Source: a virus (Duplodnaviria > Heunggongvirae > Uroviricota > Caudoviricetes). From it: a stretch of 36,460 nucleotides of DNA. This document shows positions 27,763 through 28,604 of this stretch, in pieces. The stretch lies in the IMG/VR virus record IMGVR_UViG_2534681674_000020, positions 1-36,460 of that record. The stretch is one strand, 5' to 3'. A model generated the notes under the pieces. That model saw only the letters and a program-made list of their open reading frames with translations. It was not told the origin of the DNA and did not search any database. Both the position numbers and the translations under genes were made by a program. Numbering within the stretch: position 1 is the first letter of the stretch; each line of letters starts with the position of its first letter.

Positions 27763-27923
27763 AAGCGAAAAAATCCCGCAGTGCTCACGGACAGGAACTG
27801 CGGGAGCGTTACGAAGATTGAGTGTAAGGAATTATTCTTATGTCACGACAAAAACATTAACCCAGAGAGGGAGGATGTGCCGTTCTTTTCAGGGAGAAAG
27901 GATTTATCGTCCTGAGGAATAAA

Positions 27924-27945
27924 GGTAAGGGGCCCGCCCCTTACC
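27924..27945 (-). terminator. Rho-independent terminator for sodC (hairpin readable on both strands)
   Basis: Perfect 9-bp stem ggtaagggg / ccccttacc with a 4-nt loop, followed on the minus strand by TTTATT. Confidence 0.6.
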
Positions 27946-27952
27946 TGACTGA

Positions 27953-28480
27953 TTATTGAATGATGCCGCAGGCCATTCTCGCACCACCACCGCCCAGGGG
28001 CTCCGGATGGTCATGATGGTTATCACCGCCAGCATGAAGCATGAGAGAACGCCCTTTAATCTCTTTTAATGAGTTCAGTCTCGGGGCCAGGACCGGGTAG
28101 TTCGCTTTTCCGTCATGCGTCACGAACAGCGCAGGGAGGTCGCCCAGGTGTCCATCCGGAGACCAGGGGCCAAGATGTTTGCCGGTGTTTTTCGGGTCAA
28201 AGTGACCGCCAGCCGATAATGCTGCGACCGGTTTTCCGTCTTTCAGTGCCGGGGCGCAATTTCCTTTTTCGTGCACATGAAAACCATGAATGCCTTCAGA
28301 CAGAGAGTGAAGGGCTGGTGTGAACAGCAGACCGTAGGGGGTCTCCTGAATGGTTATTTTTCCAATGCTGACTTCTTTTCCGTCAGCACTGACAAGGTTC
28401 ATTGGGACTTCCTGTTCTGCTGCGTATCCGCATGATGCTGCTGTCAGCATGGCAATGGCAGCAATGATTTTACATTTCAT
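27953..28480 (-). CDS. sodC: Periplasmic Cu,Zn superoxide dismutase (prophage moron)
   Basis: 175-aa product with a signal peptide ([20 protein letters not shown]) and Cu/Zn SOD copper/zinc-ligand His motifs ([47 protein letters not shown]). Opposite strand to the tail genes. Confidence 0.9.
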
Positions 28481-28604
28481 AAAACCCTCATTAATTCCGT
28501 TAACAGACTGAGCTTGCTGGTTACAGGGTAACAAACAGCGTTCTGATGATATCGCGCAATAGCTGTGCAATATCCTATCACTGCGATTAATAATACCAAT
28601 TGAG

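Follow-up and report, generated by a model that had tools for sequence, protein, structure and literature searches.

Tail genes I and J flank a Cu,Zn superoxide dismutase gene, which runs antisense to both, in the window analysed here, a stretch of 36,460 nucleotides assigned to Caudoviricetes (IMG/VR record IMGVR_UViG_2534681674_000020). The feature is very probably the prophage-borne SodC-F1 of EHEC-type lambdoid prophages, carried as a self-contained lysogenic-conversion cassette (Table 1). This sodC is already known and has been characterised experimentally under the name SodC-F1 (D'Orazio et al., 2008, PMC2569942), and the ordinary model, that of an autonomous cassette expressed in the lysogen, is the best supported one. 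The integrity of the gene, its metal ligands, the terminators, the cassette edges, the distribution and the identity with known genes were computed here; expression, activity, dimer state, lipidation and mutant phenotype are taken from the literature.

Table 1. Features of the I–J region (positions in the window).
Feature	Position	Strand	Description
Tail assembly gene I, left neighbour	27082–27762	+	Pfam Lambda_tail_I, E = 5.5e-16; homologues annotated as tail assembly protein
Retained I-proximal spacer	27763–27868	−	106 bp; promoterless sRNA body with terminator, putative homologue of the EcOnc22–24 family
Distal intrinsic terminator T2	27774–27805	−	Stem TCCCGCAGT/ACTGCGGGA, then AUUUUUUCGCUUUU (ATTTTTT); abuts the stop codon of I
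sodC cassette (moron)	27869–28613	−	745 bp; breakpoints by alignment with sodC-less prophages
Proximal intrinsic terminator T1 of sodC	27923–27946	−	Perfect 11-bp stem, 2 nt between the arms, then UUUAUUCC
sodC coding sequence, SodC-F1 allele	27953–28480	−	175 codons and stop; Leu112, T at nucleotide 335
Signal peptide, residues 1–20	28421–28480	−	Predicted leader sequence, the same as that studied in PMC2569942
AT-rich 5' region of sodC	28481–28613	−	GC 0.391; Shine-Dalgarno sequence and presumably the promoter; inside the published 299-bp lacZ fragment
Best candidate sigma-70 promoter	28572–28599	−	TTGGTA-16 nt-TGaTAGGAT; weight-matrix score 7.5
Tip attachment / host specificity gene J, right neighbour	28614–32105	+	Eight Pfam J-related domains, full length

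The sodC gene and its product

The reading frame of sodC runs from an ATG at 28480 to a TAA stop codon at 27955–27953, and the Shine-Dalgarno sequence GAGGG (28485–28489) is located 4 nt 5' of the start codon. Its product matches Pfam Sod_Cu (PF00080; E = 3.9e-32, 111.9 bits with a cut-off of 28.9) and the NCBIfam SodC equivalog NF007628 (218.4 bits, cut-off 165). Solved bacterial Cu,Zn superoxide dismutases, from Haemophilus (1Z9N), Yersinia (2WWN) and Salmonella (SodCI, 1EQW), match the protein at E of about 1e-62. Alignment with SodCIII of prophage Fels-1, SodCI of prophage Gifsy-2 and human SOD1 revealed that the copper ligands H68, H70, H93 and H149 and the zinc ligands H93, H102, H111 and D114 are all retained, H93 being the bridging residue. 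The catalytic R168 and C171 are invariant in the same alignment, and C75 aligns with the bacterial partner cysteine of the intrasubunit disulfide.

The N terminus comprises a hydrophobic leader with an AASC lipobox at residues 14–17 (28430–28441) and an A-x-A-like site, which suggests that the protein is exported. Two alternative cleavages are predicted, by signal peptidase I after residue 20 or by signal peptidase II before Cys17. For SodC-F, signal peptidase I has been reported to cut between residues 20 and 21, and signal peptidase II to remove the first 16 residues (PMC2569942).

The sequence-only reading of this DNA had described a complete periplasmic Cu,Zn superoxide dismutase gene. That observation is correct and stands well above chance: the reading frame is intact, both profile cut-offs are passed, all ligands are present and an export signal is predicted. 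The possibility of a frameshift, also raised there, is disposed of by the protein sequence, which is identical over 175 of 175 residues to ECs_1989 of Escherichia coli O157:H7 strain Sakai and to the sodC product of two Stx2a phages.

Identity with SodC-F1

In Sakai, the identical gene is located in prophage Sp10 with the same I-sodC-J layout, and the DNA of the I–J segment agrees at 849 of 851 positions. The two differences, at 27862 and 28606, are both non-coding, and only the latter falls within the sodC upstream region. The carriers differ, the prophage of the window being a mosaic distinct from Sp10 and probably defective.

Two prophage copies of the gene are present in O157:H7, sodC-F1 and sodC-F2, distinguished by T or C at nucleotide 335 (Leu or Pro, respectively; D'Orazio et al., 2008, PMC2569942). 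The window carries the Leu112/T335 allele, and the mature size of 155 residues and the AASC lipobox likewise match the published description of SodC-F1 (PMC2569942). Of 5426 complete E. coli genomes, 547 contain the I–J segment with sodC at a coverage of at least 80%, in most cases with at least 99% identity; the gene is annotated there as sodC, and two Stx2a-converting phages also carry the cassette.

According to the published data, FLAG-tagged SodC-F at its native locus is made in exponential, stationary and anaerobic cultures, is expressed from the uninduced prophage, and increases inside Caco-2 cells in relation to chromosomal SodC (PMC2569942). When the 299 bp preceding the start codon were fused to lacZ and the fusion was tested in K-12, both wild type and rpoS mutant, no regulation by RpoS was seen; the RpoS independence of sodC-F is stated there as "data not shown" (PMC2569942). 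SodC-F1 has an activity of 19380 U/mg and is dimeric, resistant to proteases and EDTA, and partly lipid-anchored, and sodC-F deletion mutants show raised sensitivity to H2O2 (PMC2569942).

The expectation that the gene forms an independent unit likely expressed in the lysogen is therefore borne out by what was published for the identical O157:H7 gene at its native locus (PMC2569942). Most of the checks proposed with that expectation had already been published for the identical gene (PMC2569942). Comparison with sodC-bearing prophages returned the identical gene in Sakai Sp10 and Fels-1 sodCIII in the same slot.

Position between tail genes and edges of the cassette

The placement of sodC antisense between I and J was confirmed, its reading frame being on the minus strand and both plus-strand neighbours being identified by their Pfam domains. 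The start codon assigned to J in Table 1 is an ATG that has an equivalent in all annotated homologues. The sequence-only reading had used an alternative ATG at 28605, which depends on a T at 28606, where Sakai has G. Its interval for the moron, 27763–28604, covers the entire I–J gap as delimited by the longest J reading frame; the moron itself has narrower limits on the side of gene I and reaches the start codon of J (Table 1). Judged by alignment, the left 106 bp of that interval belong to the resident spacer, outside the moron.

Only a non-coding spacer of about 240 bp separates I from J in many Stx phages and E. coli prophages, where the two genes are neighbours. The edges of the cassette were determined by alignment with one sodC-less phage and three sodC-less E. 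coli prophages. Sequence common to the sodC-less copies extends from the stop codon of I to position 27868 (...CAGAGA) and resumes at the start codon of J; where the window has the cassette, those copies contain some 130 bp of unrelated sequence. The cassette is composed of an 84-bp 3' region with terminator T1, the coding sequence and a 133-bp 5' region. Its GC content is 0.503, compared with 0.586 for K and I and 0.567 for J, and is lowest in the 5' region (Table 1). In its position between otherwise adjacent genes, its own terminator and its deviating GC content, the cassette agrees with a moron in the Juhala/Hendrix sense, a promoter of its own being presumed.

Most of the related Stx1a and Stx2c phages cover just 66% of a query spanning 27000–29200, about 610 bp being missing from them. 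The sodC-less spacer was found in 1890 genomes, at 6268 places, with best-match identities ranging from the 60–80% band to 100%, whereas the sodC state is nearly clonal, the best match being at least 99% identical in 535 of 650 matching records. Since the sodC-less state is the more widespread and diverse one and the sodC state is nearly clonal, the difference points to insertion or replacement rather than loss. In EHEC-type prophages, the gap between I and J serves repeatedly as a site for antisense cargo.

Terminators and upstream region

The claim that sodC has a terminator hairpin of its own is confirmed by T1, which is located right after the stop codon, is followed by TTTATT on the minus strand and is the highest-ranked terminator-like site of the region. 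On its plus-strand side, T1 has no T-run. In the distal terminator T2, the 3' arm and the T-run are invariant across all aligned spacer variants, and the 5' arm is variable.

The 5' region of sodC had been described as a divergent promoter region of about 125 bp. The gap is AT-rich and in fact measures 133 bp; the word "divergent" overstates the case and is misleading, because J, as part of the late operon, requires no promoter at this point. Read on the plus strand, the same stretch also carries the ribosome-binding region of J. A weight-matrix scan of 310 bp upstream on the sodC strand, compared with shuffled sequence, yielded the candidate given in Table 1, which was equalled or surpassed by the best site in 56% of the shuffles. 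A consensus scan of 27000–29200 revealed no consensus sigma-70 promoter, and this candidate also fails it. A search of the sodC upstream region for the PhoP box KGTTTA-N5-KGTTTA with up to three mismatches gave only chance-level matches, which overlap the start codon, and alignment of this region with the upstream regions of Fels-1 sodCIII and Gifsy-2 sodCI revealed no convincing conservation. The promoter is presumably located in the 5' region, as suggested by the published reporter fragment, part of which (166 bp) belongs to J.

A putative small RNA remnant beside gene I

The spacer retained beside gene I is 88.7–99.1% identical, over aligned positions, to the spacers of three sodC-less E. 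coli prophages, and a sodC-less Stx1a phage has it in its spacer as well. In sodC-less copies, a good minus-strand promoter, TTCACA-16-AATAAT (10 of 12 matches), lies right upstream of an sRNA body, and the span from promoter to terminator is about 90–100 nt; one sodC-less variant has GTATAAT as its −10 hexamer.

EcOnc22, EcOnc23 and EcOnc24 are homologous Hfq-CRAC peaks in the Sakai prophages Sp15, Sp14 and Sp11, respectively (Tree et al., 2014, PMC4104026, Table S2). EcOnc22 of Sp15 was detected on Northern blots as an RNA of about 85 nt that is destabilised in a delta-hfq strain; EcOnc23 and EcOnc24 are its sole named homologues, and Table S2 lists no peak in the sodC slot of Sp10 (PMC4104026). 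By their coordinates, all three map to I–J spacers and are oriented opposite to the tail genes. The table of Tree et al. is based on an older Sakai record, and coordinates in NC_002695.2 are about 126–146 nt higher, a shift calibrated at 1.94 Mb only. The calibrators were HnrS/EcOnc11, a 66-nt promoter-terminator unit, and AgvB/EcOnc01a, identified by its Rfam match. The older and current records presumably differ in length by roughly 128 nt, which is consistent with the calibrated shift. With this shift, taken from 1.94 Mb, applied, the Hfq peaks fall on the I-proximal body just before the terminator.

The retained segment of the window resembles EcOnc22–24 in its I–J slot, its antisense strand, the homologous body and the conservation of the terminator 3' arm and T-run; identity to the EcOnc22/24 copies of Sp15 and Sp11, which agree with it in slot and strand, is 64%. 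It differs in that the place of the −35/−10 promoter seen in sodC-less copies is taken here by the sodC cassette, with sequence that contains no −10-like hexamer. The breakpoint of the cassette lies between the −10 hexamer of the sRNA and its body, leaving the body whole. On this comparison, the segment appears to be the positional homologue of the EcOnc22–24 body, the promoter of which was replaced by the end of the sodC cassette. A displaced sRNA promoter next to a retained body is only a modest addition to what is known.

Other assignments of the spacer were considered and rejected. A search of the whole window with Rfam at gathering thresholds gave no match in the I–J region, its only matches being to sok and the ALIL pseudoknot elsewhere, and the sRNA has no family in Rfam. 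A permissive Rfam scan returned only STnc400 with 23 bits (gathering threshold 80), a generic terminator match with a 58-position deletion. AgvB and AsxR are both included in Rfam and gave no match; for HnrS (EcOnc10–12), EcOnc11 of Sp10 was placed between the lysis genes and terminase; the Pas sRNAs are located near Q and the lysis region; and the paper on svsR offers no link to this segment. EcOnc22–24 are thus the sole known prophage sRNAs that fit the 106-bp segment. A small peptide starting at an ATG at 27841 after AAGGA was also discarded, its frame being broken by 1-nt indels between copies. Folding of the remnant alignment gave a plausible 5' stem and the terminator, with one covarying pair only, which by itself is no evidence.

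The carrier prophage

The window represents a lambdoid prophage of the EHEC/EPEC type. Its genes are arranged in the order terminase, head and tail genes, sodC, J and Lom, followed by a tail fibre gene and an NleC-like M85 effector gene. It also encodes a Q-like antiterminator (3324–3890), a DNA methylase, nanS-like esterase reading frames and an IS3-family transposase with an ALIL frameshift pseudoknot (Rfam, 10834–10950). An Rfam match to sok was recorded at 767–941.

From the gene for the small terminase subunit through I, the window and a prophage of strain OkiPb01713 are almost identical. Compared with that prophage, the window carries amber codons in terL (13955 C>T) and in M (25637 G>A) and a frameshift caused by an additional G in L (26027). 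Because of these amber codons and the frameshift, the carrier prophage is probably defective, with sodC untouched.

Alternative explanations

Were sodC ancestral to the tail module and the sodC-less spacers deletions, the observed difference between the two states, 745 bp set against about 130 unrelated bp, would look the same, as it is a replacement to which alignment alone gives no direction. This order of events is nonetheless extremely improbable given that the sodC-less spacer is far commoner and more diverse beside a nearly clonal sodC state, that the sodC-less state is an intact promoter-body-terminator sRNA unit and the sodC state retains the body only, and that the GC content of the cassette is below that of its flanks. 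Equally to be considered is that sodC is a silent relic of a decaying prophage, intact by chance and of no benefit to the host, as could be supposed from the three inactivating lesions in morphogenesis genes, the IS element and a promoter not recognisable by consensus. Such a relic is very improbable: neighbouring phage genes have decayed, whereas sodC shows 100% identity to the O157:H7 gene, which is expressed and active, the pattern expected from purifying selection on the cargo; expression of sodC and a mutant phenotype are published (PMC2569942), and the cassette is conserved at 99% or more in hundreds of genomes.

A further alternative concerns the sRNA remnant. The cassette may form a bifunctional unit in which part of the transcription reads through T1 to T2 and the resulting long 3' UTR is processed to an EcOnc22-like Hfq-binding sRNA (minus strand, 27868 to about 27765), which would be coregulated with sodC and no longer depend on its own promoter. 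The positional homology with EcOnc22–24 in slot and strand, the conserved terminator 3' arm and T-run, and a breakpoint that spares the whole sRNA body are consistent with such a unit; in addition, the U-tract of T1 is interrupted (UUUAUUCC), which may permit some read-through, and sodC-bearing and sodC-less copies of the segment show 99% conservation. This conservation may, however, just mirror the recent spread of a nearly clonal cassette. Moreover, the stem of T1 is GC-rich and very stable, and no Hfq-CRAC peak was reported here in Sakai Sp10, which has the same sequence (PMC4104026). The bifunctional unit is on balance rather unlikely. It is similarly doubtful, although conceivable, that the cassette landed or became fixed at the transcription start of the sRNA and that the sRNA now comes from a read-through 3' UTR of sodC. 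If this were true, an sRNA regulator would be coupled to an oxidative-stress defence gene, and, were the remnant still expressed via sodC, a moron would here have captured an sRNA module.

Proposed working of the cassette

In the autonomous cassette model, sodC would be transcribed in the lysogen from its own promoter within the AT-rich 133 bp, as the published reporter data suggest, and, according to the literature, independently of phage induction and of RpoS. The transcript probably ends at T1, just past the stop codon, and T2, inherited from the resident sRNA gene, may act as a backstop shielding I from antisense transcription. The 175-residue precursor is predicted to be exported and to become either soluble after cleavage by signal peptidase I or membrane-anchored after lipidation at Cys17. 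The mature protein, with bound copper and zinc and a C75–C171 disulfide, would form a dimer and dismutate periplasmic or host-derived superoxide, so that the lysogen is protected against oxidative killing. In the lytic cycle, the late transcript, modified by Q, would presumably read through the cassette on the opposite strand; since the carrier prophage is probably defective, the copy in the window could hardly achieve this alone.

Related superoxide dismutases and significance

Prophage sodC genes are classic lysogenic-conversion genes, by which the host gains a periplasmic superoxide dismutase of higher activity and stability, and those of Salmonella prophages contribute to virulence. The window adds one more prophage to the carriers of sodC, with the cargo intact and the phage decaying. 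The sole new angle lies in the architecture, with a reused antisense cargo site between I and J where the sodC cassette has apparently displaced the promoter of an Hfq-bound sRNA.

The Salmonella prophage Fels-1 likewise has a Cu,Zn superoxide dismutase gene between I and J, opposite in orientation to the tail operon; its product, SodCIII (STM0924), is of equal length. The amino acid identity is, however, only 60.5%, and the upstream DNA is unrelated. Only 53 bp separate the stop codon of sodCIII from I, and Fels-1 is therefore without the sRNA remnant. SodCI of the Salmonella prophage Gifsy-2 (STM1044; PDB 1EQW), with 58.8% identity, is likewise a prophage-borne, dimeric, virulence-associated Cu,Zn superoxide dismutase encoded antisense; its gene is placed elsewhere, with a Lom-like gene (after M) on one side and gene L on the other. 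The Gifsy-2 gene is regulated by PhoPQ, a feature without a counterpart detectable in the window by the PhoP-box search.

No donor of sodC was identified in a species-representative genome set, where the best match outside E. coli reaches 69% over part of the protein. The best non-E. coli matches are encoded in chromosomal contexts in Leminorella, Pseudomonas and Serratia. The chromosomal SodC of E. coli (PDB 1ESO) belongs to the same family and has the same ligands (phmmer E-value 1.4e-56). In contrast to SodC-F, to which it is about 61% identical, this enzyme is monomeric, RpoS-dependent and produced in stationary phase only, and it is both less active and less stable (PMC2569942).

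State of the carrier prophage

The prophage that carries sodC in the window is probably defective, as judged by comparison with the prophage of E. coli OkiPb01713. The two sequences are almost identical, yet the window contains three inactivating changes, affecting the genes for the large terminase and tail proteins M and L (see the table). Despite these lesions, sodC itself is intact. Two overlapping ORFs with DUF1737, SASA and DUF6645 domains look like a single nanS-p-type sialate O-acetylesterase read in two frames; because they resemble a split gene of this type, the region 6734-8697 may represent a further frameshifted gene.

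Coordinates and supporting evidence of the features discussed (window positions unless stated otherwise)
Feature	Position	Strand	Evidence
sok antitoxin RNA	767-941	+	Rfam, 118 bits
Two overlapping ORFs	6734-7747 and 7636-8697	+	DUF1737+SASA and DUF6645 domains
ALIL frameshifting pseudoknot	10834-10950	+	Rfam, 121 bits
Transposase ORF with rve domain	10876-11766	+	Domain match
Large terminase nonsense change	13955		CAG>TAG, vs. OkiPb01713 prophage
Tail gene M nonsense change	25637		TGG>TAG, vs. OkiPb01713 prophage
Tail gene L frameshift	26027		+1 G, vs. OkiPb01713 prophage
328-residue ORF, 3' of tail fibre genes	34854-35840	+	Peptidase_M85, E=1e-112
Strong terminator-like hairpin of sodC-less spacers, not in window	L086 (sodC-less E. 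coli prophage locus) 1674-1697	+	ACAGGCATCC-TCCG-GGATGCCTGT then TGTTTTTG

Spacer between tail genes I and J

In sodC-less spacers, the plus-strand hairpin lies within the late operon, immediately 5' of J, and forms a convergent pair with the antisense sRNA terminator adjoining I. The hairpin has been eliminated by the sodC cassette.

The start of J is affected by a single base. Position 28606 is T in the window, as it also is in the OkiPb01713 prophage, and G in Sakai Sp10 and the Stx2a phage. The T creates an in-frame ATG at 28605, 9 nt 5' of the J start, and turns the likely Shine-Dalgarno sequence of J from GAGAGGAA into GAGATGAA.

Prophage Sp15 of E. coli O157:H7 Sakai, the counterpart in that strain of the Stx1 phage CP-933V, contains no sodC in its I-J gap (1492-1731 of the Sp15 locus, L091), the sRNA EcOnc22 being found in its place. 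Both prophage sodC copies were assigned to CP-933R and CP-933V by D'Orazio et al. (PMC2569942). Coordinates in Table S2 of Tree et al. (2014) are about 126-146 nt below those of the current Sakai RefSeq entry, NC_002695.2, as calibrated with AgvB and HnrS at 1.94 Mb, and placing the EcOnc sRNAs on NC_002695.2 requires correction for this offset.

Other elements carried by the prophage

Between the lysis region and the terminase lies an insertion sequence of the IS3 family, as indicated by an ALIL pseudoknot and an rve transposase ORF. The sok match indicates that the early/late boundary region of the prophage holds a toxin-antitoxin locus of the hok/sok type. The 328-residue ORF at the end of the prophage is a predicted type III effector cargo gene; Peptidase_M85 is the family of NleC-type zinc proteases degrading NF-kB p65.
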